Shown here: piece by piece, positions 3,805-60,623 of the stretch
Numbering within the stretch: the stretch's first letter is position 1
How the letters are laid out: each line of letters opens with the position of its first letter
DNA from: Promethearchaeota archaeon
GTDB lineage: Archaea; Asgardarchaeota; Heimdallarchaeia; Hodarchaeales; Hodarchaeaceae
Length of the DNA: 64,000 nt
Direction of reading: 5' to 3'
Assembly: GCA_048938105.1 (NCBI GenBank)
Contig: JBHLMN010000006.1
Coordinates: forward strand, 64,001-128,000
Program-made: the position numbers and the translations under genes
Notes under the pieces: generated by a model
Seen by the model: only the letters and a program-made list of their open reading frames with translations
Told to the model about the DNA's origin: nothing
Databases searched by the model: none

Positions 3805-6800
3805 CTAATTTTTCAGACGCTTCCTCACGATTGGTAGGAGTGAAAGAAACCCGAGAGCCAACAACCATTCGAAACCAGGTGTTACATTTGCGTCTGGATC
3901 ACCAATTACCGTAATCACCTGCTCGTAAACAGCTACTTGATTACGAGTGTTCATAATAGTCATTGTACATAGAAACTCACCGCTTCGTGTTACAACATAA
4001 TCAAAGCTATATGTTTCAGTCGTTTCGTCTTCATCGGTTTTCTCAAGAGCATACGATCCGATGTACTCTACTTCAACTACCACAGATGTAATGATAGCAT
4101 CTCCTTTCCGAAGTACCATTGTAAAAGTAATTTCTGTACCAACCTCTATCTCAGTTCCTGGTAAGATTTCTACAGAGATTATGGGATCCCATTCGTTGAC
4201 ATTAATTGTTATCCGACCAGAATCGCTTGTTTGCCCACGCTTATCAGTTACTCTAATATCAGCTGTATATGAACCAGCTTCATCAAATGTAACGATAGTC
4301 TCCCAGAGTTCTCCATCCGTGACATCCTCAATATAAGTCATCAAAATGTCTTCTCTCTTGACATGGAGAGTCACCTTATCAATGCCATCATCATCGGAAA
4401 CAACTGCACTAAATTTGATTGCTTCAGTTACTTCACAATGGGAACTATTTACAGAGAAACTATGAATGATGGGAAGACCTCTTTCAGTAGCAATATTTAT
4501 TGATAATTCAACAGAATCAAAGGAGACCCAGGTACCCCATGCTTCAATTACTAGATTGTAATCACCTGAATACCACAGATAGATATCTATTTGCCAAATC
4601 TCGTGAGTTTCATTTGAGAGGACTTGATTCATCCATACATCGCCATAATCGTGATCGAAGCAAACTATGACTCTATCGACACCTTCAGTTGATTCCTTAT
4701 GAATGGTTACCACAAGACTTAATTCTTCATCTAGGTAGTATTGCCCATTGTCATCAGGTTGGGAGACTGATAATATTTCAATAAATGTAGTATATTCTGA
4801 ATCAAAATCATCGTACGTATAACTGTTTTTTAGGTAAACATTGTCCCATGATTCGTAGATAATCATCCAATCATCTGTTCTGATAAGTTGATAATAATCA
4901 ATGTATAATTCACCAGACATTGTGAATCCTGAGTCATAAAGATGTTTTCCCAAGAAGTCTAAGGAAACATTATACAGGCCAATAGGTAAATCATAAAGAT
5001 TCACTTCTGTGTAATCCCATATTTGGCTAAGCTCCGCTTCAATTAGTATATCAATGCCAGAAACAGTCACATTAACCTCAAAATCAACTCGTAGGAGATC
5101 AAAGAACCCATCACTATCAAGATCTACCCCATAATCGAATATACGAGTAACCCAAGCATCAGGATAATCAACATCAGCACTAGTATAGGTACCTGGAAGA
5201 TAGAGATCATCATCTTCCTTCAGGACTAGTCCATCATCTGATTCAATATAGAGATAATTAATATAATACAAGGTTCCTGCAGGTTGTCCAAATATGTAAC
5301 GGCTATCGAGCTGTATTGTTAGATTATGCGTTCCAACAGCGAAATAACTCCAACTTGTGGAGAAATAATAATATCCACCTTCACTAGTTGTTGAGTAGAT
5401 ATTCCCTGAGGCATAATATTCTGCAGCTTCGGTAACTTCGATTTCAATTTTGATTTCAATATAATCAAATCTCCCATTACTATCAGTGTCAACCCCTTGA
5501 TCATAGATATTATCTGTTAAGCTGACTGCAGGATCATCAAATTCTGTGTGGGCATAAGTTCTGCTGAAAAGGTGATTATCTTCCTCATGAATACGTTCAT
5601 ACCACCCCTCATCTACAATATATTGATTAACATAGAAATAATTAATGTAAATCTGCGCTTCACTCTCATGATACCTTATCCACCAATCAGCTATCTTGAA
5701 CGTAAAATTATGGGTTCCTACTGTTAAATAAGTTTTATTTTCAAAATTAAAATCTTCACCACCTTCATCAGCACAAATGTAACCCCAAATGGAGTAATTT
5801 CCTGATTCTGTTACACTAACCTCTATTGCAAACTCTAAATAGTCATATTTGCCATTACTGTCGTCATCGACACCATAATCGTAAAAATTACCCGTAAGTG
5901 CAATTCCTGGTGGGTCGAAATCATCATGGTGATAGATGTTTAGGAAATAATAGTCTTCTTCTGAATAATCACACTGACCAGAATCTTCTTGTTCGATATA
6001 TTTGTAACTTAGATAGAATGTATCTCCATCAGGTTGATTAAAGACCCAATATCTATCAATTTGAAATGTTAAGTTATATTGGCCTTTGTCTAAAGTAAGC
6101 CATTCAGAGGATACTGTAACCCCGTAATCCCCTTCAATCGCATAAATTCGCCCATAAACATAGTATTTTCCAGGAGTATTGATCTCTACCTCTATCTTCA
6201 ACTCAATGTAGTTATATTTTCCGTCAGCATCAGTATCAACCCCTGAGTCAAAGTGATCACCTGTAAAGTAAGCTGGGGGCCTTTCAAAATCATCAGAATT
6301 ATAAACAAGATCAGTCACAAAGTTATCTTCTCGATAATCCCATTGTTTAACAAGGTTATCATAATCATCTACTTCATATATCTCAACATATTCTAAGGTG
6401 TATGTTGTAATAGTTAGTTGGCTAAAGATCCATTCTCCAGGAAAAGCTAGTATGAACTGATGAGTACCTGCGTTCAAAATTTGTTGCGTATCAGTGGTCA
6501 CATAATAGGTTTCTTTAGTAATGGGATTTCGTAACCTTCCTTGCATTGCATACTTACCAGTTTCATTGATTTCCACTTCAACAAAGATTTGTAGTTCATC
6601 CCATAAACCGTTACCATTAGTTTCTTCGACATGATCTGAATAAATTCCAGTCAATCTAGCTTTAGGTGGATCGAAATCTGTGAATATATAGGGCCCAAAT
6701 GTAGCGCTATTGTTATTATCCAAATCTGCCCAAGGATCCCCACCATATAACTCTAAGTCATCAAATTTAACTAACCCGTTTACCCCAGAGCGGAAGAATT

Positions 6801-8406
6801 TATCCCCCTCAAATCTTAGTTGTAACCAATACGTACCAATAATTGTGAAATGGGAACTATTACTTGCATAATCAATATTCACATAGTTTGAAGCAATATC
6901 CAACCACGCTCCAACGTGATAATAACCTATTTTAGTCACGACTACCTCAACATCAATAACAAGCCAATCCCATAAGCCATCTCCATCAGTATCATCACCA
7001 TTATCGTTGAAATTATGCGTTAAGTATGCACCTGGTCCTTCAAAGGTATTATAATTGTATAAGCTATCTGAAATCCATTCTACCCCACTAAATGAATAGG
7101 AATCGGTGTAATAATCACTATAGTCACCTTGGATATTAGAAAGTAAAAAGTGGTCATTTAAGATTTCACTTTGATAAATGTGAATACCATTGAAATCAAA
7201 AACAACATTTCTTATTCCTAAACCCACATCTTCAATATAAAAGCCACTAGCCCAATCATATGTGATGTAAGTATTTGTTGAGTTAATGTAAAGGCTAGCA
7301 TACATGTTCCACCATCCAGATTCAATTCGTAGGACATTAACTTCCATTTCAACTTGATAATAATCGTTAAAACCATCATAATCTGAGTCAATTAAACTAT
7401 CCCAGAATTGTCCAGTCGGTACAACAGGAGGAACATCAAAATCACTTGGATTACAGATATTTGTTGTATAAATATCCGAGTTTGAATATAATTCGTATGT
7501 CGGAGGATCATCATGTCTGATATAGAGCCAATCCAGTTCTAATGAATCCGAACCACTCATGTCAACGAATTTCCAACCAGGAAACTTCAGAGTAACTGTA
7601 TGTGACCCTAAACCAAGATACGTGTTGTTATAAGCGTAATCAGATACTCCACCTATAGTAGAGGGATTTACTCTGCCTTTAAAATAGTAAGTTGAAGGCA
7701 TTGAGACAGTTACAGGAATTCTAACGTAAATCCATTCATATTTGGAGTTGGAATCACGATCTAGAAAATCAAAGCTAATAGAGGCTTCATTAACAGTAAT
7801 GGGATATGGTAAGAAATCATCTACCTTATATGCTTCAGTTACTAAAACGATTTCATCGTCATAAATTGTGTAACTGGTACCGTTATTTTTGTAAAACGTT
7901 AAACGGATATCATAGGGACCAGCAAAACCAACTTCATTTATCGCATATCCACAAAAATCAAAGAGAGCAACTGTTTCAACGTTTGCAGTGATTTCGCCAC
8001 TCCAAGAAGCAGAAACACCCACTTGACTCCCACCTTTATAGAGATAAGCAGTTCCAGAGTAATGAGCGTTTTGCTTAGGTTTGAAGCGCATATTAAAGCG
8101 AAGTGTGTCATTCCCATAACCAAACATCTGCATTGTATGTTCTGTAAATGCTGTAACCTCGATTGTTGCTTCTGGATATACACTACCGTACCAATGAGTT
8201 AAACGCGGTTGAGTAATTTCCTCCTTTTGTTTAATTTCACTATTTGAATAATCGTCAGCTAAAATCTGACAAGGAGAACTACCACTCTCACAAAGATTTT
8301 TATCTGTAGAAGGAATTGTAAACACTCCCACAATCATTGAAGAGAGTAAGATTAACAAAAATATATTAATAGCCATATAAGTTCCTTTTATTCTTTGGAT
8401 CTCCAT
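3805..8406 (-). CDS. Large secreted surface protein with tandem DxDxDG Ca-binding Ig-like repeats and PGF-CTERM/Heimdall-CTERM-like anchor
   Basis: Signal peptide; eight clear ~125-130 aa repeats (e.g. DTDGDGLWDWLVIDVEV, DTDADGKYNYIELKIEV); C-terminal TPGFEWLLALGFLSLLPIVRKRLKN. Confidence 0.85.
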   Translation of the reverse strand: MEIQRIKGTYMAINIFLLILLSSMIVGVFTIPSTDKNLCESGSSPCQILADDYSNSEIKQKEEITQPRLTHWYGSVYPEATIEVTAFTEHTMQMFGYGNDTLRFNMRFKPKQNAHYSGTAYLYKGGSQVGVSASWSGEITANVETVALFDFCGYAINEVGFAGPYDIRLTFYKNNGTSYTIYDDEIVLVTEAYKVDDFLPYPITVNEASISFDFLDRDSNSKYEWIYVRIPVTVSMPSTYYFKGRVNPSTIGGVSDYAYNNTYLGLGSHTVTLKFPGWKFVDMSGSDSLELDWLYIRHDDPPTYELYSNSDIYTTNICNPSDFDVPPVVPTGQFWDSLIDSDYDGFNDYYQVEMEVNVLRIESGWWNMYASLYINSTNTYITYDWASGFYIEDVGLGIRNVVFDFNGIHIYQSEILNDHFLLSNIQGDYSDYYTDSYSFSGVEWISDSLYNYNTFEGPGAYLTHNFNDNGDDTDGDGLWDWLVIDVEVVVTKIGYYHVGAWLDIASNYVNIDYASNSSHFTIIGTYWLQLRFEGDKFFRSGVNGLVKFDDLELYGGDPWADLDNNNSATFGPYIFTDFDPPKARLTGIYSDHVEETNGNGLWDELQIFVEVEINETGKYAMQGRLRNPITKETYYVTTDTQQILNAGTHQFILAFPGEWIFSQLTITTYTLEYVEIYEVDDYDNLVKQWDYREDNFVTDLVYNSDDFERPPAYFTGDHFDSGVDTDADGKYNYIELKIEVEINTPGKYYVYGRIYAIEGDYGVTVSSEWLTLDKGQYNLTFQIDRYWVFNQPDGDTFYLSYKYIEQEDSGQCDYSEEDYYFLNIYHHDDFDPPGIALTGNFYDYGVDDDSNGKYDYLEFAIEVSVTESGNYSIWGYICADEGGEDFNFENKTYLTVGTHNFTFKIADWWIRYHESEAQIYINYFYVNQYIVDEGWYERIHEEDNHLFSRTYAHTEFDDPAVSLTDNIYDQGVDTDSNGRFDYIEIKIEIEVTEAAEYYASGNIYSTTSEGGYYYFSTSWSYFAVGTHNLTIQLDSRYIFGQPAGTLYYINYLYIESDDGLVLKEDDDLYLPGTYTSADVDYPDAWVTRIFDYGVDLDSDGFFDLLRVDFEVNVTVSGIDILIEAELSQIWDYTEVNLYDLPIGLYNVSLDFLGKHLYDSGFTMSGELYIDYYQLIRTDDWMIIYESWDNVYLKNSYTYDDFDSEYTTFIEILSVSQPDDNGQYYLDEELSLVVTIHKESTEGVDRVIVCFDHDYGDVWMNQVLSNETHEIWQIDIYLWYSGDYNLVIEAWGTWVSFDSVELSINIATERGLPIIHSFSVNSSHCEVTEAIKFSAVVSDDDGIDKVTLHVKREDILMTYIEDVTDGELWETIVTFDEAGSYTADIRVTDKRGQTSDSGRITINVNEWDPIISVEILPGTEIEVGTEITFTMVLRKGDAIITSVVVEVEYIGSYALEKTDEDETTETYSFDYVVTRSGEFLCTMTIMNTRNQVAVYEQVITVIGDPDANVTPGFEWLLALGFLSLLPIVRKRLKN

Positions 8407-9133
8407 TTTTTATCCCTCATTTTTAACAAGTATTTTATAATTGAATAACATTAACCTCCATAACATATCTCAGTGGTAGGTTAATAATCTAAGAAAATTC
8501 TGTCACATATATGAATTAGGTAGATAACTTGTTGAATACTCTTAAAAGAGTAACTAAAACAAAGTTAAGCTTTTAGTAAAAGGAATCATCTAAATAATCT
8601 ATATGGAGAGTAATAGTGGATTAGAATGATTTTCCAATCCTCAGACTGGTCTAATACGTCAGTAAATAAATATTACTCTTTTTTTTGCTTAATAAGCGAT
8701 CTTATATCTGTAAATAATTGTGATTGGTGTAGAATGAGAAGTTAATAGGCCCTTAAGGCCAAAAATATTCTATTCTCTCTTCTAAGTATTTTCAATTTCT
8801 TATCACAACTTATAAACATCATTTTCAAAAAAATATTACATCACGGCGGAATATAAAAAGCGAATCCAGAAATAATGGATGACTCTTTGTATTCTCTCAC
8901 TTTTATCACGTTTTTTCTTTGATCTTAGTCTATTAAAGTCTTATAACCTCCAACAACATAGAAATCTATATCAAAGCAGAATTTCGGAATATGTCAGTAC
9001 ATATTTCACTGCTTTTTATCCTTCAAATAGGAAAATAATTACCTGTTACAGTGGATATTGGGCCTTACTTCTTTCTCTATTACTTTACCAGCTTCTGCAT
9101 CTTTAAAAGCTCGCGCCAAGAAGGTATCCTGTC

Positions 9134-12031
9134 ATGGTAGACGAGAAAAAAGAATGTATCTATGTTCAAAATGCTCAGGTCCACAATCTTCGGAATTTGA
9201 CAGTTTCCATCCCTCGTAATCAATTTGTAGTCATTACTGGTGTAAGTGGATCAGGAAAATCAAGCTTGGCATTTGATGTAATTTTTGCAGAGGGACAACG
9301 TCGGTACGTAGAATCGTTAAGTGCCTATGCCCGACAATTCTTAGGAAGAATGCAAAAACCAGACGTAGAACTGATTGAAGGTTTATCTCCAGCAGTTTCT
9401 ATTGAACAGAAAACAACTAGTAAAAATCCCCGATCAACAGTCGGTACGCAAACTGAGATTTTTGATTATTTGCGTTTATTATTTGCTAATATCGGCATTC
9501 CTCACTGTACGTCTTGTGGAAAGGAATTACGGATTCAGACACCTCAATCAATCGTCCGAACAATACTTACTTGGGAAGAAGGAACAAAAATCAAAGTCTT
9601 GGCACCGATCATTAGGGGGAAAAAAGGTACTCACCATACTCAATGGGAACGACTTACAGAAATGGGATTTGTGCGAGTAAGAGTGGACGGAATCGAATAT
9701 GAACTTACAGATCCTCCCCAGCTCGATCGATACAAACTTCACTCCATTGAAGCCATCGTAGATCGACTTATTATTAAACCTAACATACGAAAACGACTAG
9801 TTGAAGCAATAGAACAAGCGCTTGAACTGGGAGATGGAGTGGTAATAATTTCAAAGGTAAATTCTGAACAGGCGGAGGTAAATAATGATTTCTTTTTTAG
9901 TGAGAATTATGCTTGTCCAGACTGTGAACTCTCCTATGAAGAATTGAAACCAAGGAATTTTAGCTTTAATTCGCCATGGGGTTCATGTCCTGAATGTCAG
10001 GGATTAGGGACAACACTACATGTAGACCCAAACTTAGTTATCACTAATCCAAGTTTGTCATTCCGTGAAGGTGGGATATTGGACAAACCTTTGATACCTG
10101 GGTCGTGGCGGTTTTCTTATTTCACCTCCCTTGCGAAAGTTTGGGATGATTTCTCTGTTGATACACCAATCGAGGATCTTTCTGATGAAGTAATAGAGAG
10201 ATTACTTTATGGCTCACAGAAAAGGATGAGTATTGTTTTTGAATCGGAAAGAAGTCGTTGGGAATCCAAACAACATCTTCATGAAGGTATTATTAGAACA
10301 CTATGGCGGAGGTATCAAGACACACAAAGTGAGAGTGCTCGTTCTTATTATGAACGATTTATGAGGAAGGATTTCTGTTCCAGCTGTAAGGGCAAGCGAT
10401 TAAAACCTGAATCCCTTGCTGTCACAGTCCAAGGTAAGAATATCATTGATATTTCAGAAATGACGGTTGATAGATGTTTAACATGGATTAAAAGCATTCG
10501 CTCTCAACTATCAAAGACTCATCTAAAAATTGCTACAAACATTTTACGAGAGATTGAAGCGAGACTAGAATTCCTTATTTCAGTAGGATTACCCTACTTG
10601 ACATTAGATCGAACTTCAATGACACTCTCAGGTGGAGAATCTCAAAGAATTCGTCTCGCAACGCAAATTGGATCTGCGTTAGTTGGTGTGACCTATGTAT
10701 TAGATGAACCTAGTATTGGACTTCATGCTCGAGATCAACAAAAACTTCTAACATCATTAAAGAATCTTCGGGCAATAGGAAACACAGTCCTTGCTGTTGA
10801 ACATGATCACCAAACAATATTAGCAGCAGATCATGTTATTGACCTCGGCCCTGGTCCAGGTATTCATGGAGGCACCCTAGTTGTCCAAGGGACACCAAAA
10901 GACATAATGAATTGTACTAATTCCACGACTGGAGCTTATCTTTCAGGAAAAAAGAGAATAGAAATACCAAAATATCGAAAAACTGGCAATGGAGAGACAA
11001 TCAAGATAATAGGTGCGACAGCAAATAACCTGAAGAATATTGATGTAGAATTTCCATTAGGCCGTTTTATTTGCATTACAGGTGTTTCAGGATCAGGTAA
11101 ATCAACATTAATGAACGATACATTGTATAGGGGCCTCATGAAATACCTTCACAGGTCACGAGAAAACGTTGGACCTCATAAAAAATTTGAAGGACTAGAA
11201 TTTATTGATAAAGTGATCAACATCGATCAAAGTCCTATCGGTAGAACACCTAGGTCAAATCCTGCAACTTACACTGGTGTTTGGAATAATATCAGAGCAT
11301 TATTCGCTCAGACACAAGAAGCGAAAGTAAGGGGATATAAACAGGGTCGTTTTAGTTTTAACGTTAAAGGTGGCCGGTGTGAGGCATGTCATGGTGGAGG
11401 ACAGATTAAGATTGAACTATCATTCTTACCAGATGTCTGGATTACTTGTGATGATTGCAAAGGTAAACGTTACAACACTGAGACATTAGAAATTCGTTAC
11501 AAAGGAAAAAATATATCTGATGTCTTAAACATGACTGTTGAGGAAGCATTAGATTTCTTTGCATATATTCCGAAAATAAAACACAAATTACAAACTATAG
11601 TAGACGTAGGTTTGAGTTATATCCAATTAGGTCAGCCTGCAACAACCTTATCAGGAGGGGAAGCACAACGTGTCAAATTATCTAAAGAGCTTTCAAAAAG
11701 ATCTACTGGTAAAACATTTTACATTCTAGATGAGCCAACAACAGGTCTTTCAACACATGACATCTCATATCTTTTAGCTGTTCTTCAAAGACTGGTTAAA
11801 GAAGGTAATACAGTTGTGGTTATAGAACATAATCTTGATGTTATCAAAACTGCTGATTGGATTATAGAATTAGGACCTGAAGGTGGGGATAATGGAGGAG
11901 AAGTGCTTGCCACAGGAACCCCAGAGGATATTTCTCAAATTGAATGTCCAACTGGTAGTTATTTACAGGGAATATTTCATTCAAGGGATGCAAAAACACA
12001 ACTAACATCATCAATTGAAACGAGTAATTAG
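9134..12031 (+). CDS. uvrA: Excinuclease ABC subunit A
   Basis: Two NBDs (GVSGSGKSS, GVSGSGKST), LSGGE signatures, CxxC zinc modules, AEGQRRYVESLSAYARQF and IDQSPIGRTPRSNPATY motifs. Confidence 0.98.
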   Translation: MVDEKKECIYVQNAQVHNLRNLTVSIPRNQFVVITGVSGSGKSSLAFDVIFAEGQRRYVESLSAYARQFLGRMQKPDVELIEGLSPAVSIEQKTTSKNPRSTVGTQTEIFDYLRLLFANIGIPHCTSCGKELRIQTPQSIVRTILTWEEGTKIKVLAPIIRGKKGTHHTQWERLTEMGFVRVRVDGIEYELTDPPQLDRYKLHSIEAIVDRLIIKPNIRKRLVEAIEQALELGDGVVIISKVNSEQAEVNNDFFFSENYACPDCELSYEELKPRNFSFNSPWGSCPECQGLGTTLHVDPNLVITNPSLSFREGGILDKPLIPGSWRFSYFTSLAKVWDDFSVDTPIEDLSDEVIERLLYGSQKRMSIVFESERSRWESKQHLHEGIIRTLWRRYQDTQSESARSYYERFMRKDFCSSCKGKRLKPESLAVTVQGKNIIDISEMTVDRCLTWIKSIRSQLSKTHLKIATNILREIEARLEFLISVGLPYLTLDRTSMTLSGGESQRIRLATQIGSALVGVTYVLDEPSIGLHARDQQKLLTSLKNLRAIGNTVLAVEHDHQTILAADHVIDLGPGPGIHGGTLVVQGTPKDIMNCTNSTTGAYLSGKKRIEIPKYRKTGNGETIKIIGATANNLKNIDVEFPLGRFICITGVSGSGKSTLMNDTLYRGLMKYLHRSRENVGPHKKFEGLEFIDKVINIDQSPIGRTPRSNPATYTGVWNNIRALFAQTQEAKVRGYKQGRFSFNVKGGRCEACHGGGQIKIELSFLPDVWITCDDCKGKRYNTETLEIRYKGKNISDVLNMTVEEALDFFAYIPKIKHKLQTIVDVGLSYIQLGQPATTLSGGEAQRVKLSKELSKRSTGKTFYILDEPTTGLSTHDISYLLAVLQRLVKEGNTVVVIEHNLDVIKTADWIIELGPEGGDNGGEVLATGTPEDISQIECPTGSYLQGIFHSRDAKTQLTSSIETSN

Positions 12032-12086
12032 ACTTAATTGATAATATACACTCAAATTTTTAACTTTCAATACTTATACTAGTTTT

Positions 12087-13517
12087 ATGCTTCATTTAAC
12101 TTTACTCACCTCCAAAGAACAAGAGATGATACATACAGCGGCATTAAATGTCTTGGAATCAGTTGGGTGTGAAATTCGGGATAAAAGATGGCTTAATGAA
12201 CTCGATAAAGCGGGAGCTAAAGTCGAGAATAAGAGTTCAAGGGTTTTTATTACTGATGAAGACTTAATTAATACTTCTATTGAAACATGTGGTCGAAAAA
12301 TAAAAAAACTGGCTCGAAATCCAAAAAATGATTTTGTTTTAGGTACAAACCATCCTAAAACTCATACACCTGAAGGTATGACGCATATCATTGATTTAAA
12401 GACAGCCAAAAGACGAGAATCACTATTATCTGATGTAAAAGAAATTGCAATAATCTGTGATAGCTTAACTAATGTAGATGCAATTATAAGTCCAATTGTC
12501 CCCAATGATGTCCCCCCACCCCTTCAATCTATCATATCTATGAAAGTTCTTCTAGAGAACTCTTCAAAACCTGTCATTCCTGGTGGGACCGCATTAAACA
12601 GGACTTTACCTTACATCTTTAAAATGAAACAAGCAATAGCAGGAGATCGTGATATTACTGAGTACAGTCTTGGGGTTGGTGTTTTTGCCACAAGTCCCTT
12701 AAAGTATTCTCCTGAACAATTAGATCTTCTATGGCAAAGTACTGAGATCGGTACTCCTTGTTCGGTGGGTTCTGCGCCTCAAGCAGGTTCAACAGCCCCA
12801 GCTTACCTAGCTGGTATGTTAACTCAATTTACTGCCGAAGTATTGATGGGACTTGTTATGGCACAGGTGAAGAGGCCTGGGTTGAGTCAGTATATTTATG
12901 TCCGTACTTATCTTATCAATCCTCGAATGGGAAGTCTCAATTCAAGTAGTCCAGAAGTTGGACTTATTCAAGCAGCAGCAACACAGCTATTCAAAGAAAA
13001 ATATCAAATCCCTGTAGATTCAGGTTGGGCTGTTAGTGATTCTCACATAGTAGGGTCTCAGGCTACCTATGAGAAAAGCTATATTTGGTTAATGAGTATG
13101 TTAGCTGGGGCAGACATGGTTTCAGGAATTAGTGGCCTTAGCAGCGGTCTGACTGCCTCGATTTCGCAAGCTGTAATTGATAATGAAATAATTGGTTATT
13201 TACGTCAGGGATGCTCAAGAATACTTGTTGACGACATGCATTTGAGTATCGAAATGATCAAAAATATCGGTATTGATGGTACATTTCTAACTCATCCTAA
13301 AACTGGGAAAATTATACGTCAAGAACGGTGGTTTCCAGATCTATCAACTCATGACCGTCATGAGATCTGGGAAGCAGCTGGTTCATATGGATTAGTGAGA
13401 ACAGCAGGTAAAAAAGCTTTAGAAATCCTTGAAAGCCATGAAGCCGAACCATTGGATTCCGATCTAAAGAAAACTTTGGACAAAATCGTCCATAAGGCAA
13501 AAAAACAATTAATTTAG
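12087..13517 (+). CDS. Trimethylamine methyltransferase (MttB/MtgB) superfamily protein, non-pyrrolysine
   Basis: IHTAALNVLESVG, SPLKY, AGSTAPAYLAG, SDSHIVGSQATYEK, VIDNEIIG, GTFLTHPKT and WEAAG motifs; no in-frame TAG. Confidence 0.88.
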   Translation: MLHLTLLTSKEQEMIHTAALNVLESVGCEIRDKRWLNELDKAGAKVENKSSRVFITDEDLINTSIETCGRKIKKLARNPKNDFVLGTNHPKTHTPEGMTHIIDLKTAKRRESLLSDVKEIAIICDSLTNVDAIISPIVPNDVPPPLQSIISMKVLLENSSKPVIPGGTALNRTLPYIFKMKQAIAGDRDITEYSLGVGVFATSPLKYSPEQLDLLWQSTEIGTPCSVGSAPQAGSTAPAYLAGMLTQFTAEVLMGLVMAQVKRPGLSQYIYVRTYLINPRMGSLNSSSPEVGLIQAAATQLFKEKYQIPVDSGWAVSDSHIVGSQATYEKSYIWLMSMLAGADMVSGISGLSSGLTASISQAVIDNEIIGYLRQGCSRILVDDMHLSIEMIKNIGIDGTFLTHPKTGKIIRQERWFPDLSTHDRHEIWEAAGSYGLVRTAGKKALEILESHEAEPLDSDLKKTLDKIVHKAKKQLI

Positions 13518-52584: not shown

Positions 52585-54390
52585 TTACTTTGATAATATT
52601 GATCTTCGCTTATATAGCACAGCCATTGTCCCTATGATTGCTAAGACTGGAAACATCTCGAACCCAATCGTACCGTTCGTAGTTGAGAACGTTGTTGTAG
52701 TCTTTTGTGTTGTTGATGTCGTAGAGGATTTATCTGGAACCCAATCTGGAAGGTTGATTATGCTTAAGAATACGTCATATCTACCTTTACATTCCTTCTG
52801 ATAAGCGTTTTCTGTGACGGGGAAATCATATGAAAAAGTGCAACCTGTGATACATAGATTGCCTGCACTATTGAGTACAGATCCGTATGACCCTATCTCA
52901 ATATAATTTCCTCCTATAAAGGTCGATGCTTGGAGAGCGGAGCCGTCTGCAGCTAATTTTACAGCATAGATGTCGAAATATTCAGTATCAATGACTGCTG
53001 ACTCATTAGGTACAAGAGGAAAATCACTAGATCTCGTCATCCCTGTGATATATAATCTGTTTCCACTATCTAATATACAAGCTCCACTCATTTCATCATC
53101 ACTTCCACCAATGAAGGTTGAATAGAGAAGGGTGGAGCCATCTGCAGCTAATTTTGTGACGAAAGAATCGCCACCTCTTTGATCAAAATAAAAATGAGAA
53201 TCTTGAACCCAACCATTACCTCCATTAAATGTTTGATCATAAGCATTGGTCGTTGTTGGAAAATCACTAGATTTTGTTTCACCGTAAAGATATAGGTTAT
53301 CTGAGCTATCTAGTGTAAGAGATTCAATATGATCATATTTACTTCCACCAATGAAGGTTGAATATACTAGAGAGGTTCCATTGGCTGATATTTTTGTAAT
53401 GAAACCATCAGAACTACCACCATAAGTTGTATTATATGCTGTACTCGTCGTTGGAAAATCATCTGACCACGTTTCACCTGTAATGTATATATTCTCAGAG
53501 CTGTCTAGAGTAATCCCCCGTGAAAGTTCATCACCACTTCCGCCAATAAAGGTGGAATAGAGAAGCTTTGACCCATTGGTTGAGATTTTACTAACATAAG
53601 CATCACCAAAGAAGCGATATAATCCCCAAGGATACAAATAAACCTCATTACTATACCCCCCATATGTTGAGTCAAATGCAGTTGGTGTTGTTGGAAAATT
53701 AGCTGAGTGAGTCGAACCTGTTATATAAACATTATTTGATCTATCTAAGACAATATCATCTACATAATCATTGTCGGTTCCACCAATGAAGGTCGAATAG
53801 AGTAGTTCTGAGCCATCTGCAGATAATTTGGCCACAAAAGCGTCAGTTGTCCCGTTGTGTGTTGAATCATAAGCATGTTTTATTGGGAAATTTTTGGAAT
53901 GTGTTACACCACAAATATATACATTATTTGAACTATCTAATGCAATGCTTTGAGCGTAATCGTGGTTACTTCCACCTAAAAAGGTTGAATATAAAAGCTG
54001 TGAGCCATCAGCTGAGAATTTAACAATAAATACGTCATAACCACCATTATGAGTGGGATCATAAGCATCCGTTGTATTTGGGAACAGTGGGGACATTGTG
54101 CCTCCACAGATGTATATATTGCCTGAACTATCTAAAGCCATATCACCTAATCCCTCCCAGTCACCACCACCGATATAGGTTGATGCAGTTAACTTTTGTG
54201 GATCGATCGTAATAGATTGTAAAGGATCATCCGCTATTAATAGTACTGGTTCTCCCTTGGTGTCTTCAATCAGCTGTATCGATTTGTCATGGTTTATAGG
54301 ATTTATTGCAGAATATATGAAAAGGATCGATAGCGAAAAGAAGCTTATTAAGAATATTACTTTCTTTTGTTTAATTAATTCTTTATTCAT
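52585..54390 (-). CDS. SBBP-repeat beta-propeller surface protein with CTERM anchor
   Basis: Seven YSTFIGG..D...LDSS.N.YI.G.T.S.DFP repeats; Thr-rich linker; IGFEM-TM-KRR. Confidence 0.92.
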   Translation of the reverse strand: MNKELIKQKKVIFLISFFSLSILFIYSAINPINHDKSIQLIEDTKGEPVLLIADDPLQSITIDPQKLTASTYIGGGDWEGLGDMALDSSGNIYICGGTMSPLFPNTTDAYDPTHNGGYDVFIVKFSADGSQLLYSTFLGGSNHDYAQSIALDSSNNVYICGVTHSKNFPIKHAYDSTHNGTTDAFVAKLSADGSELLYSTFIGGTDNDYVDDIVLDRSNNVYITGSTHSANFPTTPTAFDSTYGGYSNEVYLYPWGLYRFFGDAYVSKISTNGSKLLYSTFIGGSGDELSRGITLDSSENIYITGETWSDDFPTTSTAYNTTYGGSSDGFITKISANGTSLVYSTFIGGSKYDHIESLTLDSSDNLYLYGETKSSDFPTTTNAYDQTFNGGNGWVQDSHFYFDQRGGDSFVTKLAADGSTLLYSTFIGGSDDEMSGACILDSGNRLYITGMTRSSDFPLVPNESAVIDTEYFDIYAVKLAADGSALQASTFIGGNYIEIGSYGSVLNSAGNLCITGCTFSYDFPVTENAYQKECKGRYDVFLSIINLPDWVPDKSSTTSTTQKTTTTFSTTNGTIGFEMFPVLAIIGTMAVLYKRRSILSK

Positions 54391-54821: not shown

Positions 54822-56006
54822 TTGGCTGATTTTACTATGGCTGGATTGTCAAACGATATCAAAGATACTATTAAGTTTGAATCACTTTTGATGGATATTT
54901 TAAGACCAAACATCAACGAACAGCATGCTCGTATCCTCGCTATGATGTTCAAACTCGGTGGGTATACTACTCTGAATGTCTTGACAAAAAAGCTTACTAT
55001 GGCGCAACCTACTGTGAGTAACAGAGTAGCTGAATTAGTTGAATTGGGTGGTTTTCTAAGAAAGAACTCTGAACTCATGCCCATTGCCCTGGTCCTCCTT
55101 CTTACAGTTGACGAATTAGAATTACTCTTAAGGAACAAAATTATCGCTTACCGAGAGGCATGTCAATTTTTGGTGCAATTGTCAGATATCTCTGACAGTG
55201 AATTGGGAAAATACACATTTATTCAAGCCATTGATAAGTTATATCCTAAATCAACAAGCTATCAATCATATTTAGTACAGCTCATAGCTAATACTTATCT
55301 CCACAGCCCTGTTTCAAGAAATAGATTATTTCAGCAAGTTCGATCTAATTTAGGAGAATCCAAGAAATTAGAAAAAGAATTAAGTTCAATAATTGCTTCT
55401 CATGACGATATTTTTCATATTATTCATCAGAAACAGCAGATAAAGGAAATGTTTGTCCAACCAAAACTCCCTTTAAGGATTTTCGCGCAAAATCGTTTGA
55501 ACTATCTTGAATCCCTATTCTCATATTACCAAGAACTCCTCATAGAGTTATCAGATTTAATGTCAAGTGATTATGATTCAATTACCCCTCATAAATCTCT
55601 CCATTATCCCTCAGAAATCAAACGTAGATTAAATAGATGTCTAAACCATTATTCCACGATTCGTGTTATTGATAATTCGGTCTATCAGGAAAGAGATGAC
55701 ACGAATGGAATATTAGAGCTTTTGTTTGAGAGTAAGAATTTTACACAAGATCATAAAGTTATGATATTAACTAAAAAAAGGGTATTGGTTCCAGATAACA
55801 TTAATTCATCCCAAATTACTGTTCGACCTTTATCTAAGCAGATCAGTAGAGATTATATAACAAGAGATTTCATAATCTTCGAGAAGCATGGATGTTTAGT
55901 ATGTCCATCTGCTTCCAGTGATCCCTATTATAACATATCTCCCCACTTCATTTCAGAGATTTTGAATACTTTTCATTCGATTTGGAGAAAAAAACATGTT
56001 GATTGA
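54822..56006 (+). CDS. TrmB-like transcriptional regulator (wHTH, possible second wHTH, C-terminal effector domain)
   Basis: EQHARIL...TLNVLTKKLTMAQPTVSNRVAELVELGGFL HTH; C-terminal alpha/beta domain ending DFIIFEKHGCLV. Alternative ATG at 54837. Confidence 0.75.
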   Translation: MADFTMAGLSNDIKDTIKFESLLMDILRPNINEQHARILAMMFKLGGYTTLNVLTKKLTMAQPTVSNRVAELVELGGFLRKNSELMPIALVLLLTVDELELLLRNKIIAYREACQFLVQLSDISDSELGKYTFIQAIDKLYPKSTSYQSYLVQLIANTYLHSPVSRNRLFQQVRSNLGESKKLEKELSSIIASHDDIFHIIHQKQQIKEMFVQPKLPLRIFAQNRLNYLESLFSYYQELLIELSDLMSSDYDSITPHKSLHYPSEIKRRLNRCLNHYSTIRVIDNSVYQERDDTNGILELLFESKNFTQDHKVMILTKKRVLVPDNINSSQITVRPLSKQISRDYITRDFIIFEKHGCLVCPSASSDPYYNISPHFISEILNTFHSIWRKKHVD

Positions 56007-56475
56007 CTTTTTAAGGCTGATTAAAGGATTTATTTTAGTTATAGGCCCTAAAGAAGCAGGTAAAACTAGCATTTTGAGAAGGCTTGTAACAGGAACATTT
56101 GAAGAACACAAACCAACTCTGGGTTTTCACGAAGAGAAAATAGCTAGAATGAGAATAATTGAGATCGGAGGACATCAAAATTTTAAGGATTACTGGAAGA
56201 TTGCTCTGGAACAGTCTCCAGTGCATATTTTTTATGTTATCGACATAACAAAAAAGTCTGAATTTACCGATTATCGACAATTCTTAGATGATTTCAATCA
56301 TTCATATCCCCAGCTTACTGAAAAGACAACATTAATAGCTAATAAAATTGATCTAACAATTAAGATTCCCGAACACTTTAAAGAGATTAAGTCTATTATT
56401 CTATCCAGTGCAAAAAATGGGGAAGGGATGTTTGATATATTAGAAACTATTGCAAAATATAAAGATAGCGTTTAG
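55996..56475 (+). CDS. Small GTPase, Arf/Sar1-like
   Basis: G1 GPKEAGKT, G2 PTLGF, G3 EIGGH, G4 NKID, G5 SSAK; N-terminal amphipathic MLIDFLRLIK; 11-nt overlap with the regulator. Confidence 0.9.
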   Translation: MLIDFLRLIKGFILVIGPKEAGKTSILRRLVTGTFEEHKPTLGFHEEKIARMRIIEIGGHQNFKDYWKIALEQSPVHIFYVIDITKKSEFTDYRQFLDDFNHSYPQLTEKTTLIANKIDLTIKIPEHFKEIKSIILSSAKNGEGMFDILETIAKYKDSV

Positions 56476-56540
56476 ACGACTTTATAGCTTCAACGTGTTA
56501 ATAGAATTTAAGTATCTTTGTAAAGGACATGCAAGATCAA

Positions 56541-58895
56541 TCATTTTATGAGAATTTGGTATAATTCGTCCTCGATTCGCTTAATCCAATCTAAGCTAAT
56601 CTCTGAAATATCTGATAGAATATTTGATTTGAGGAACTGTGTGATTTCGTCTCTTTTTGATAAAATAATTTTGTCGAACTGTTTTTGATAAAAAATTATC
56701 AAAATTGCAGGAACAACTCCTCCCAATTTAAGTATTCTCGGATCCTTAACCATATTATCCCTCACATTAAAGCTAAAAGAGAGGAAATGCCATTCTATAT
56801 CGGTAGGTTCAACAATGGAAGTGTGAGGAAAAGGACCATATATATTTTCGATTTCTCCATGCTGATATAGTACTGCACTATACTCTATCATTGAACGAAG
56901 CTCGTGATCATCAAAGGAGCAATTCCCACCTTTTCCTTGAATAGATAGTCCTTCGTCAGTGAGTGATCCTATACAAACAGCAATAGATAAGTTCTCTAGA
57001 TCTCTTGGAAGAACGGCCGCTTTTTTCTTCCACATAATGAACCCTATGGCTATACTCGCCATAATTATTAACAACATAAGGAAAACTAGATATAATGAGG
57101 ATTTTGGAGAGTTCGAAATGGCAAATTCACCAGAAAAAGCTGTTGATGATAGATCTCCTGAACATGTTGCCACAACTTTGATCATATAAGTTGAATTGTC
57201 TTCAAAAAGAGTCGTATCCCATGTATAATTGGTGGTTGTAAGTCCTGAAACTAGTAAAGTCCATTCATTTCCACCGTCCGTAGAATAATACACAGAATAG
57301 CTGATTAGATGGTTCCGCCAAGAATCATTGACTACAGTCCATTCAATGATGATCATTTCAGAGATGGTTTCACCAGTAATCGGAGACGTAATGTTAAGGG
57401 GAGATAGTTGATGAGGTGGAGAGCGAGATGATAAGGGATATGGATCATATGTATTAGTAATCACTCCAAAAATAGGGTATTTATCATCTACAATACCATC
57501 ATTATTAATATCTGGATCTGTCCACTCACTCCAATAGTTGTATGAAAAATTATTGTTTTCTCCAGAGTCAAGTGCCTGAGAGGATACACCTATATTGTTT
57601 CCAATAAAATCATTCCATTCAAATAGGTTATTGGAAGCTTGTGATGATAAATAAATCCCAAAGTTGGTGTTATTTGAGAAGACATTTCCATAAAGGCTGT
57701 TATTCGAGGAGTACTCAATGTAAATACCGTAACTGTTATTGTTGACAGTATTAGCAGAAAGAATACAACTCTCCGATTTATAAAGTTCAATACCATATCC
57801 AGAATTGTTAGAGGCGATATTATTAGATAGAATATTGCTTCTAGAGTTCCGAATAATAATTCCTACATTCTTATTGTTATCAACAGTGTTGGTTGAAAGA
57901 AAACAACTCTCAGATTCAAAAAGTACAATACCATGTCTAAAATTACGAGAAATAACATTACTGGAAATATTGCAATTTTGAGATCTGCTGTTATTGATTC
58001 CAGACATACCATTTTTGTGAATGAGATTACTGAAGAGAGAGGTACTATCAGAATTTTGGATATTAATTCCATTAAAATGGTTGTTAAAGAGGTTATTATC
58101 TGAAAGCGTGCAATTACGAGAGTTCCAAAGGGAGATGCCATCTTCCATATTATTAAATATCAAATTATCTCTTAGACTGTTCGATTCAGATTCATCAAAA
58201 AAAATTCCTATCTGTACGGAATCTGAAACCAGATTTTTTGAAAGAACATTATTGCCTGAATCATAAAGATTAATTCCATTTTTTTCGTTGTTGCCTATTG
58301 TATTGTTAGAAAGTGTATTGTTTTTCGAACGAATGAAAAAGATCCCATCCCAATTGTTCCTAGACATGTTATTTCTTGAAATTATGTTATTGTTAGAGTC
58401 TACTAGTTGAACCCCTCCCAAGGAGTTTTTGGTGATTGTATTTCTGTCAATGATAATACTCTCTGAAAATTCAATAGAAATCCCTTTTGCATTATTCTCA
58501 ATTATGGTGTTATAAGTAATAAGCCCATTGATGACATTAGTAAGAGAAATTCCTTTTTTTCCCCCATATAAAAAACAGGCATTTATATGAAAATGCACAT
58601 TAGTGTTCCTAATTTCGATTAGGTTTTTATCTGATGGTCCTGTGATATTATATCCAGTAATTTCATAAGGAAATGTCAAGCTTCCATCACCTACCCAGTT
58701 TTCCTTCGTTGCAGTAGCACTAAAGTTTGAATTACCATTGATGTAAATAGGGCTCTGCTCTTCATATTTTATAGAATGGTTAAAAAGAGTAGAGTCAGAG
58801 CCAAGATGATAATTGTGAGTAAGATTTAATGAAACGTTAATTGAGAGAAATAGAAAAAATATAACGAAATGAAAAGAGTTCTGGGAGAACTTCAT
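56541..58895 (-). CDS. Receptor-like protein: NosD/beta-helix ectodomain, Ig-like domain, single TM, cytoplasmic uDENN/longin-like domain
   Basis: Signal peptide, GDGSLTFPYEI, ~23-aa GI.L..S..N.IS.N repeats, TM followed by WKKK, ~150-aa tail with TDEG, IYGPFP, FSFNVRD...DPR. Confidence 0.8.
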   Translation of the reverse strand: MKFSQNSFHFVIFFLFLSINVSLNLTHNYHLGSDSTLFNHSIKYEEQSPIYINGNSNFSATATKENWVGDGSLTFPYEITGYNITGPSDKNLIEIRNTNVHFHINACFLYGGKKGISLTNVINGLITYNTIIENNAKGISIEFSESIIIDRNTITKNSLGGVQLVDSNNNIISRNNMSRNNWDGIFFIRSKNNTLSNNTIGNNEKNGINLYDSGNNVLSKNLVSDSVQIGIFFDESESNSLRDNLIFNNMEDGISLWNSRNCTLSDNNLFNNHFNGINIQNSDSTSLFSNLIHKNGMSGINNSRSQNCNISSNVISRNFRHGIVLFESESCFLSTNTVDNNKNVGIIIRNSRSNILSNNIASNNSGYGIELYKSESCILSANTVNNNSYGIYIEYSSNNSLYGNVFSNNTNFGIYLSSQASNNLFEWNDFIGNNIGVSSQALDSGENNNFSYNYWSEWTDPDINNDGIVDDKYPIFGVITNTYDPYPLSSRSPPHQLSPLNITSPITGETISEMIIIEWTVVNDSWRNHLISYSVYYSTDGGNEWTLLVSGLTTTNYTWDTTLFEDNSTYMIKVVATCSGDLSSTAFSGEFAISNSPKSSLYLVFLMLLIIMASIAIGFIMWKKKAAVLPRDLENLSIAVCIGSLTDEGLSIQGKGGNCSFDDHELRSMIEYSAVLYQHGEIENIYGPFPHTSIVEPTDIEWHFLSFSFNVRDNMVKDPRILKLGGVVPAILIIFYQKQFDKIILSKRDEITQFLKSNILSDISEISLDWIKRIEDELYQILIK

Positions 58896-59012: not shown

Positions 59013-60623
59013 CTAAGAAACAAGTGGTGCTCTATACAATCCCAAGAGATGGCGAGTACTACTATGAATTTCAACTTCTTCAACGTGAATTACTCCACTT
59101 TCATATATTGATATTACATTGAATGTATTCATCCTCTTTGAACGAATTTTCTTACTTGAAAAAGTTCCAGCATTCACAAAAACCGTATCTTCAATTTGCA
59201 TTGTTGTAGCGTAATGATCAAGCCCTGATAACACGAGGGGAACTTTATGACCAGTAACAAAATCAATTACATCACCAGCATCAGTGACAGCCCGTTTGAA
59301 ACGAGCACGAGGGATTGGTAAGGCACTATGGTGCATCACAACGAAAAAGAATTTGTATGATCCAAAAGTCTCGAACTCATGTTGAATCATCCTTAACCGA
59401 CTACGGCCAACATGACCTGCAGGATCTGGACCAGTATTAATACCAAGAACACGGAGGGATGGATCTTCAAAAACAGGATCTAAAGGCCCGACTTGTTGAA
59501 CCCATAACTCCCGACCAAAGGGTTGTAGATCTCTTGAGCCAGGTACAATTAAATACGGAATATCATACCCACGAAGCTCTCGTAATTTGATTTTTGCGAT
59601 AGCAAAATCCTCTGGATAAGCATCATTTGTTAAATCTCCGCAATGAATAAGCATATTCGGATTCTCCCGAAGCATCATTTTAATCCCGAGATCATAAACT
59701 TCAGCAAGAAAATGACTACCTGGACTGAAGTGTGTATCGGAAAATTGACAAATTTTGCTTAAGAGTTTATCCCCCGGCACAAGATAGCCAGCTTGTGGTT
59801 TAAGCTCTCCTTTTAAAATTGAAGTTGTTTCTTTGACTGGTTGTTGAAATTTAGAATAAGATTCGATTCCATAAAAGTTGATATTCAATTCTTCATCAGC
59901 TAGTGTGAGTTCTACAAAAGTGTGCCCTGCTTTCCCACGAGTCTTGAAACTACTGAAAGTACCGCAATTCACAAGCAAACAACGTCTTATTCCGTTTGAG
60001 AGGGAGAATATATTTGGGTAGTGACGGTGAGCAGTAATTATCACATCAATTCCCGCCCTCCAGATGACTTGCATGACATCACCTGCGTCTAAGATCATCG
60101 ATCTTTCCCTTCCAGTGTTTGGAATTGGTAATAGGTGATGATGGAAACAAAGAACCTTTACAATGTCATCGCTATAGCTATGAAGTTCATTAATAGCTTC
60201 AAGACCCCGATCACCAATTCTACCAATATTTTCATCGGGTTCAGAACTATCAATGCCAAGGATAATCATATTACCCCCATCTTTCGTTGTGTCAATTAAA
60301 AATTGGCGTTCACCAAAGAAATCTTTCCATAACTTGTCTCCAATGTTTCTCATATCATGATTCCCAGTCAATGTGTAGAAGTTTTCAACCTGGGAAAAAT
60401 GTCTATCAAGAAGTTTTTTGGCATACACAAAGTCCTCATAGGTGCCTGAATCAGTAATATCTCCGAGATGGAGAAGATAAGCATTCGGGTTTTCCTTTAA
60501 AAGACCCTGAATTAGTTTAATCCCTGTTTTAAAAGCTTTCTTATTAAAAAAGCCAGTAAATTTTGAAATATGACTATCAGAAAAAATGATTACTTCTTCT
60601 TTTTGAGAAGAATCCATTGTCAC
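59013..60623 (-). CDS. Tandem calcineurin-like metallophosphoesterase
   Basis: Domain 1: DSH, GDITD, GNHD, HHH, AHRH. Domain 2: DTH, GDLTN, GSRD, MHH, GLDH. Confidence 0.9.
   Translation of the reverse strand: MTMDSSQKEEVIIFSDSHISKFTGFFNKKAFKTGIKLIQGLLKENPNAYLLHLGDITDSGTYEDFVYAKKLLDRHFSQVENFYTLTGNHDMRNIGDKLWKDFFGERQFLIDTTKDGGNMIILGIDSSEPDENIGRIGDRGLEAINELHSYSDDIVKVLCFHHHLLPIPNTGRERSMILDAGDVMQVIWRAGIDVIITAHRHYPNIFSLSNGIRRCLLVNCGTFSSFKTRGKAGHTFVELTLADEELNINFYGIESYSKFQQPVKETTSILKGELKPQAGYLVPGDKLLSKICQFSDTHFSPGSHFLAEVYDLGIKMMLRENPNMLIHCGDLTNDAYPEDFAIAKIKLRELRGYDIPYLIVPGSRDLQPFGRELWVQQVGPLDPVFEDPSLRVLGINTGPDPAGHVGRSRLRMIQHEFETFGSYKFFFVVMHHSALPIPRARFKRAVTDAGDVIDFVTGHKVPLVLSGLDHYATTMQIEDTVFVNAGTFSSKKIRSKRMNTFNVISIYESGVIHVEEVEIHSSTRHLLGLYRAPLVS

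Follow-up and report, generated by a model that had tools for sequence, protein, structure and literature searches.

The Locus

The window analysed here, a stretch of 64,000 nucleotides (nt) from the assembly of a Promethearchaeota archaeon of the family Hodarchaeaceae (GCA_048938105.1, contig JBHLMN010000006.1, positions 64,001 to 128,000), contains three neighbouring genes that encode a TrmB-like regulator, an Arf/Sar1-like GTPase and a single-pass membrane protein (here called the receptor), the last of which ends, behind its transmembrane helix, in a tail with a predicted longin fold. A preliminary description of the stretch had pointed to these three open reading frames (ORFs), and all three were recovered at the same coordinates, as were the 11-nt overlap of the first two and the convergent gap of 65 nt before the third. 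The nearest database proteins are named Heimdallarchaeota or Hodarchaeales. The features are listed below, with protein positions in amino acids (aa) and with b and a standing for strands and helices.

54822..56006, + strand: ORF of the TrmB-like regulator (TTG start; ATG at 54837), 394 aa from the TTG and 389 aa from the ATG
55996..56475, + strand: Arf/Sar1-like GTPase gene, 159 aa
56476..56540, no strand: spacer of 65 nt between the convergent GTPase and receptor genes
56541..58895, − strand: single-pass membrane protein (receptor) gene, 784 aa, with signal peptide, beta-helix, probable beta-sandwich, transmembrane helix and longin tail
57486..58673, − strand: extracellular right-handed beta-helix, about aa 75–470 (Pfam NosD, E 7.6e-56; Beta_helix, E 2.1e-51)
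57030..57098, − strand: transmembrane helix, about aa 600–622, followed by KKK (hydropathy peak of 2.93 at aa 603–621)
56544..57023, − strand: cytoplasmic longin domain, aa 625–784 (160 aa; AlphaFold2 predicted local distance difference test (pLDDT) 93.8, predicted template modelling score (pTM) 0.88)
56736..56738, − strand: codon of Arg720 (R96 of the domain) in the b4–b5 loop, a candidate Arg finger, at least 90% conserved in the tail alignment A1

The ATG at 54837 is taken as the start of the regulator, in agreement with a database protein of 389 aa (P0134). The 11 nt are shared by the 3′ end of the regulator gene and the 5′ end of the GTPase gene, and this overlap, taken by itself, suggests that the two are co-transcribed.

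The Receptor and Its Longin Tail

The receptor begins with a hydrophobic stretch at aa 8–26 (the signal peptide) and continues into the beta-helix, in which seven parallel repeats are recognized (NCBIfam para_beta_helix, E 1.3e-49); it is best explained as a type-I membrane protein whose extracellular part is a beta-helix of carbohydrate type. The anatomy given in the preliminary description is borne out as regards the signal peptide, the beta-helix, the single transmembrane helix and the tail, whereas the Ig-like part that it placed between the beta-helix and the membrane is represented by a weak signal (F5_F8_type_C, E 0.003) and by an Ig-like Kre9_KNH match (E 1.4e-4) in a homologue. Neither the receptor nor the neighbouring genes showed a kinase or ATPase domain in a Pfam scan.

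The tail belongs to a sequence family of its own. The family models PF11704 and PF06218 gave no sequence match to it and an NCBIfam search returned nothing, while an exhaustive HMMER search of 1.8 billion representatives yielded 56 relatives, 37 of them at E ≤ 1e-10. In the closer relatives the longin domain is C-terminal and follows straight after a transmembrane helix, with ectodomains that differ from protein to protein (beta-helix, WD40 propellers or almost none); in the distant ones it is N-terminal, in soluble proteins of about 350–460 aa. In the 42-member alignment of the family (A1), G25, G63 and P66 are invariant, and L42, P64, D94 and R96 nearly so. The motifs that had been quoted for the tail from the start are all present (IGSLTDEG at aa 642–649, IYGPFP at 685–690, FSFNVRD at 707–713 and DPR at 718–720) and overlap the invariant or nearly invariant columns G25, G63, P64, P66, D94 and R96. 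A side result of the search was a protein of 4490 aa (P0102), 34 separate stretches of which match the tail query, as either an array of longin-like repeats or a compositional artefact.

The AlphaFold2 model, computed with A1, has the topology b-b-a-b-b-b-a-a, which is the longin order; by DSSP the strands lie at residues 14–22, 25–31, 61–67, 78–88 and 103–113 of the domain, with a helix at 39–55 and further helices at 114–159. In a Foldseek search only two chains were found at E ≤ 0.001, both of them the longin domain of a Lokiarchaeota Roadblock-Longin protein (best E 3.4e-4). A second structure search, VIA, which is independent of Foldseek, likewise ranked this domain first (8yqg_B, Z 13.0, 132 aa, 2.8 Å), and placed next the longin of Lst4 (4zy8_C, Z 12.3, 123 aa, 2.8 Å), followed by a chain of the FLCN-FNIP2 complex (Z 10.4), chains of SEA/GATOR1 (Npr2/3; Z 9.7 and 9.2) and C9orf72-SMCR8 (Z 9.3). 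Longins of guanine nucleotide exchange factors (GEFs) followed with Z 8.5 and 8.1 for sedlin/TRAPP, 8.4 for CPLANE, 7.9 for DENND10 and 7.2 for Mon1-Ccz1, and those of SNAREs and adaptors with 8.5 for VAMP7, 7.4 for Sec22 and 7.2 for AP2 sigma. Neighbours of the tail in the ESM Atlas were eukaryotic Folliculin, SMCR8, C9orf72 and NPR2 clusters and one heimdallarchaeial cluster, 23% of whose members carry PF11704 (Folliculin). A roadblock, PAS or GAF fold was considered and rejected as the leading reading, with Z 5.8–7.0 against 13.0 for longin. On the strength of the model, the tail is a longin domain of a separate, divergent family, and the longin/uDENN-like fold that had been suspected is thereby supported. 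The receptor ends at aa 784, right behind the longin helices, so that the cDENN and dDENN lobes are absent and it is not a full DENN protein.

The GTPase and the Regulator

The small GTPase is a member of the Arf family, scoring 57.8 bits with Pfam Arf (E 1.2e-15; cut-off 22.3) versus 38.5 bits with Ras, and having Arl1, Arl3, Arf and Sar1 as its best sequence matches in the PDB. Its motifs are intact (G1 GPKEAGKTS, G2 PTLGF, G3 EIGGH, G4 NKID and G5 SAK). The protein begins with MLIDFLRLIKGF, and an N-terminus of the form MLxDFLRLIKGF is kept throughout the family (alignment A2). In G3, Glu replaces Asp and His replaces the catalytic Gln of Arf, as in Sar1; the paralogues of the GTPase retain Gln. 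The Arf/Sar1-like label thus describes it well, down to the Sar1-like His. The window copy and its two closest orthologues (P0004 and P0005) also stop short of an extension, about 35 aa long and with ES(L/I)LKEFQGKF at its end, that all other members of A2 carry at the C-terminus.

The regulator was modelled with a pLDDT of 88 and a pTM of 0.83. It consists of an extra winged helix (aa 27–88) and a long helix, and then of a TrmB-like unit (aa 121–386) that is itself made of a winged helix, a long helix and a PLD-like domain. Foldseek matched the model to TrmBL2 (E 1.4e-6) and TrmB (E 6.7e-6), and VIA superposed residues 8–239 of TrmB (3qph_A) on residues 121–386 with Z 11.5 over 222 aligned positions, and the sugar-binding (effector) domain of TrmB (2f5t_X) with Z 11.2 and a root-mean-square deviation of 3.2 over 122. 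There was no match to PF01978 or PF11495, the only sequence signals being winged-helix matches to MarR_2 (Pfam, E 0.029) and Lrs14 (E 0.024), both below the cut-off, so that the name TrmB-like, which the preliminary description had also used, holds at the level of the fold and not by a Pfam sequence match.

A Predicted Complex of Tail and GTPase

The proposed contact of the tail with the GTPase was modelled as a complex of two tail copies (with A1) and one GTPase (with A2), the GTPase being the only partner scored. An interface was predicted with a score of 0.66, against 0.19 for the best of three controls; that mark was reached in calibration by 58 of 80 solved complexes and by 2 of 110 mismatched pairs. 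Contacts agreed between runs in at least 92%, with a partner pLDDT of at least 85. On the tail side the interface comprises the b1–b2 hairpin (21–27, with the invariant G25), helix a1 (40–55) and, in one copy, the D-P-R loop (94–97); on the GTPase side it comprises the N-terminal helix (1–10), the P-loop (19–20), switch I (37–48) and switch II (60–63), including the His. Such a model supports, rather than demonstrates, binding of the tail to the GTPase.

The same model bears on the possibility that the tail is a non-catalytic dock for one nucleotide state of the GTPase, recruiting it, and possibly also the regulator, to the membrane in the manner of SRX-SRbeta, longin-SNARE or adaptor interactions, or that it marks the receptor as cargo to be sorted in a GTPase-driven step. 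The N-terminal helix of the GTPase is placed against helix a1 of both tails, an arrangement that looks more like recognition than like catalysis; SNARE and adaptor longins are among the structural matches, and tails are borne by very different ectodomains. Yet the conserved D-x-R loop and the b1–b2 hairpin meet the region of the P-loop and switch II in the complex, and the closest structures are catalytic longins of GTPase-activating proteins (GAPs), which makes a purely docking tail quite unlikely.

A Candidate Arg Finger

Residue R96 lies within the predicted interface stretch 94–97, that is, in the same interface as P-loop residues 19–20 of the GTPase. An Arg finger has been described in FLCN/SMCR8-type longins of Heimdallarchaeia, where the GTPase they act on was posed as a question, and a GP motif at the end of the b1–b2 loop was tied to GAP longins (PMC12290439). 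A profile of heimdallarchaeial PF11704 longins (A4) was aligned to A1 with hhalign, which gave a borderline match (probability 50.8%, E 1.6e-4) over 86 columns, from b4 to a3, and put R96 in the same b4–b5 loop as the invariant Arg of A4, three residues off it, the loop being six residues longer. When A1 was aligned with one Folliculin-type sequence instead of a profile, significance was not reached (E 0.16). The b1–b2 loop of the tail family reads (S/T)-x-(T/S)-D-x-G followed by a hydrophobic residue, and the family's invariant G-P sits on strand b3.

The genome of the window also has a true PF11704 protein of 449 aa (locus L059, 619..1968, − strand, on contig C52), with HGP in the b1–b2 loop and ARG in the b4–b5 loop; heimdallarchaeial PF11704 proteins are conserved at 70–89% identity, and the b4–b5 ARG is invariant in them. 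About 6 kb from this gene lies that of a 311-aa Arf-family GTPase (C52:289684-290619) with a C-terminal extension, possibly an Arf-longin fusion. A second PF11704 match, of 23.5 bits, falls inside an open frame of 8857 aa that encodes a giant protein (L060, G000:C52:40606-43854).

The preliminary description had taken the tail for a GEF-like element. Longin pairs of Mon1-Ccz1, TRAPP and BLOC-3 do act as Rab exchange factors, GEF longins are among the structural matches, the predicted interface takes in the P-loop and both switches, which GEF interfaces also cover, and no other GEF candidate was seen at the locus. Against this, the nearest structures are longins of GAP complexes, which rank above those of GEFs (Z 9.2–12.3 over 7.2–8.5), the receptor has neither the cDENN nor the dDENN lobe of a DENN GEF, and an exchange role leaves the nearly invariant Arg in the Arg-finger loop unexplained. 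That the tail loads the GTPase with GTP upon engagement of the ectodomain is consequently held to be unlikely, and the GEF assignment finds no specific support. The lean is instead towards a GAP-type role, because of the ranking of the structural neighbours, the near-invariance of the b4–b5 Arg and the place of this Arg in the predicted interface; such a role is given a little less than an even chance.

Conservation of the Gene Linkage

The three genes recur, in the same order and again with an 11-nt overlap, in a complete genome (CP070760.1). Twelve related regulator loci were compared, the window excluded: in 12/12 the regulator gene adjoins or overlaps that of the GTPase, and genes for transmembrane-anchored tails lie no more than 4 kb away in 11/12. 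The twelfth (G066) is uninformative, as an assembly gap (a run of N) begins at the 3′ end of its GTPase gene. Four arrangements of the tail genes occur (convergent and downstream, downstream but separated by one gene, divergent and upstream, or divergent where the pair is itself inverted), and the linkage persists through rearrangement and through divergence down to about 37% identity of the regulator.

A paralogous locus (L002, G000:C41:148000-164000, 5942..12255) is found on the window's own contig, 35 kb off and outside the window, with a regulator 51% and a GTPase 55–56% identical to the window copies. Here the regulator and GTPase genes are followed by three membrane genes on the minus strand, two of which bear tails; in paralogous loci two tail genes stand side by side. 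Together with the twelve related loci, this bears out the linkage of the three genes in related genomes. The three minus-strand products are a polytopic membrane protein, a short protein with beta-helix, transmembrane helix and longin tail, and a protein with a transmembrane helix and longin tail. The GTPase of this locus retains the C-terminal motif ES(I/L)L(K/R)EFQGKF. The polytopic protein (8321..9412, − strand, 363 aa), the C-terminal 120 aa of which resemble a b-b-a-b-b-b-a domain, matches no Pfam family, and also occurs beside tail genes at four other loci (L038, L042, L034 and L035).

In a survey of 399 genomes of the phylum, the regulator family was limited to the window's genus (12/20 species) and two genomes of the same order, and the tail family was broader, reaching 85 genomes and almost every family of the class. 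Of the genomes of the genus, 11 of the 13 with the regulator and none of the 8 without it had strong tail matches, counts that overstate independence, the genomes being kin. Soluble proteins whose N-terminal domain is a tail-like longin are encoded near different Arf-family GTPases, without a regulator, in three further lineages of family rank; two of these pairs are co-directional, with gaps of 7 nt and 2 nt, and the third is about 2 kb apart. In two Asgard clusters (274 and 122 members) an Arf domain is joined in one protein with a longin that resembles the tail (template modelling score 0.70 over 137 aa).

These data also bear on the possibility that the tail and the GTPase do not touch at all, the receptor genes being targets of the regulator that encode glycan-handling surface proteins under its local control, the GTPase acting on the regulator or elsewhere, and the tail having another partner. 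In favour of such an arrangement, regulators of the TrmB family typically govern sugar-related genes close by, the beta-helix of the ectodomain is of a carbohydrate type, and the linkage data come mostly from one genus. It leaves aside, however, that distant relatives of the tail abut Arf-family GTPases where there is no regulator, that Arf-longin fusions exist, and that the complex model beats its controls; an arrangement without contact is rated very improbable.

Several further observations concern the surroundings of these genes. The module in the window is flanked on one side by a gene for a surface protein of 601 aa with an SBBP beta-propeller and a C-terminal anchor (52585..54390, − strand) and on the other side by one for a 536-aa tandem metallophosphoesterase (59013..60623, − strand), neither of which is kept beside the module at locus L001. 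At another locus (L055, G000:C52:99774-102533) a gene for a Gtr1/RagA-like GTPase of 334 aa has one for a weakly tail-like longin protein within 1 kb downstream, and at a further one (L056, G000:C6:365470-366399) a response-regulator receiver domain is fused to a weakly tail-like domain.

A Proposed Membrane-to-GTPase Module

The locus is read here as a three-gene membrane-to-GTPase module of one Heimdallarchaeial order, with the tail acting most likely as a GAP, a reading that is held at just under even confidence. The ectodomain would sense a ligand outside the cell, and the longin tails, which follow directly after the transmembrane helix, would pair up inside it. The tail pair would then dock on the neighbouring Arf/Sar1-like GTPase, at its P-loop and both switches, and set its nucleotide state at the membrane, most likely in a GAP-type manner via Arg720. 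Because their genes overlap, the regulator and the GTPase are probably produced together and probably act together, and the state of the GTPase would in that case gate the access of the regulator to DNA, for example by the regulator being held at the membrane. What the analysis shows of all this is the folds, the conserved gene linkage and a predicted interface, while dimerisation, GAP chemistry, the sensing of a ligand and the coupling to the regulator are inferred.

A number of points weigh against this. The tail (aa 618–784) matches no Pfam family, Folliculin and NPR2 included, even at E 10, and no PDB chain was matched by it in sequence searches; its profile-profile link to the PF11704 longins is only borderline (probability 51%), and the GP motif at the b1–b2 loop that has been tied to GAP longins (PMC12290439) is not found there in the family. 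The pass of the complex model may partly reflect likeness to solved longin/roadblock-GTPase complexes, the model was built with custom alignments and a 2+1 design, unlike the calibration set, and its interface was read as sets of residues and not as which tail residue meets the P-loop. Apart from two genomes of the same order, the regulator-linked loci all belong to a single GTDB genus and are not independent, and 7/10 distant tail-family loci are without a nearby GTPase. Finally, the role of the beta-helix could be enzymatic or adhesive instead of sensory.

Comparison with Known Systems

Each part of the module is of a known kind: longins that regulate small GTPases are known, as are Arf-family GTPases of Asgard archaea and regulators of the TrmB type. 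Small GTPases, like longin and roadblock proteins, are numerous in Asgard archaea, and it is the pairing of the GTPases with their regulators that forms the gap. This pairing is hard because the GTPase genes, as found in MK-D1, generally lie outside operons with longin or roadblock genes (PMC10933270). For the Asgard Arf GTPases no native regulators are named (bioRxiv 10.1101/2024.02.28.582541, PMC11914678), and these are considered as still to be established (PMC11914678). No longin that is anchored to a receptor and linked both to a GTPase of the Arf family and to a TrmB-like gene is described in the literature searched, the 15 longins of PMC12290439 being left uncompared. The locus and its relatives offer a defined pair, a tail of 160 aa and a GTPase of 159 aa, and since the linkage of the two is conserved, an interface between them is predicted and an Arg is available as the candidate catalytic residue, the question can be tested at the bench. 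In addition, a longin domain is here wired to a surface protein and linked to a transcription factor; if the proposed module is real, it would be a simple route of signalling from membrane to gene, assembled from components that in eukaryotes later came to serve organelle identity and nutrient sensing.

The GTPase resembles the Asgard ArfR/AArf proteins (bioRxiv 10.1101/2024.02.28.582541, PMC11914678) in having an Arf G domain from Heimdallarchaeia and a non-myristoylated N-terminal helix. It differs from them in its G3 (EIGGH versus DxxGQ) and in being without the C-terminal extension of its own family, and placement in the ArfR clade is not claimed. The regulator shares with TrmB and TrmBL2 (Z 11.5 and 11.2) the winged helix, the long helix and the PLD-like effector domain; unlike TrmB, it has an extra N-terminal winged helix and helix, a C-terminal beta-barrel sugar subdomain is not evident in it, and its gene is coupled to that of a GTPase.

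At the level of the operon, the module is comparable to the actinobacterial conservons and to MglA-MglB, in which a membrane sensor, a regulator of the roadblock/longin superfamily and a Ras-superfamily GTPase are combined. Conservons consist of the sensor kinase CvnA, the roadblock protein CvnB, CvnC and the GTPase CvnD (PMC13343842, PMC13621833). In contrast, the present module is without a histidine-kinase domain, has the sensor-like part and the longin in one polypeptide, uses an Arf-family instead of an MglA/Ras-like GTPase, and has a TrmB-like regulator as its linked output gene; it is an analogue of the conservons and not a member.

The FLCN/SMCR8-type longins of Heimdallarchaeia (PMC12290439) are of the same phylum and fold class as the tail, and align with it, at borderline significance, from b4 to a3; they differ in being soluble, about 430 aa long and not encoded beside this GTPase. 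The closest eukaryotic counterparts are the longin GAP complexes FLCN-FNIP (Lst7-Lst4), GATOR1 Nprl2-Nprl3 and C9orf72-SMCR8, which share the longin fold and are the best structural matches after the Asgard longin. They are also alike in a conserved Arg of the b4–b5 loop, in a partner GTPase of the Arf or Rag type, which for the tail is a predicted one, and in a site at the membrane. Unlike them, the tail has neither a PF11704 or PF06218 match nor a GP motif at b1–b2, it lacks a C-terminal half like that of DENN proteins, a transmembrane helix ties it covalently to a surface protein, and it is encoded here by a single gene instead of a pair.

A longin GAP, a small GTPase and a membrane-held transcription factor are joined in the FLCN-RagC-TFEB axis, to which the module, with its longin, small GTPase and gene regulator, is likened by analogy only. 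A further step would be to regard the tails as a receptor-anchored archaeal family that is sister to the FLCN/Nprl2/SMCR8 GAP longins, and the module as a prokaryotic counterpart of the FLCN-Rag-TFEB type of nutrient signalling at membranes. This is considered rather doubtful; if true, a native regulator would for the first time have been named for an Asgard Arf-family GTPase.

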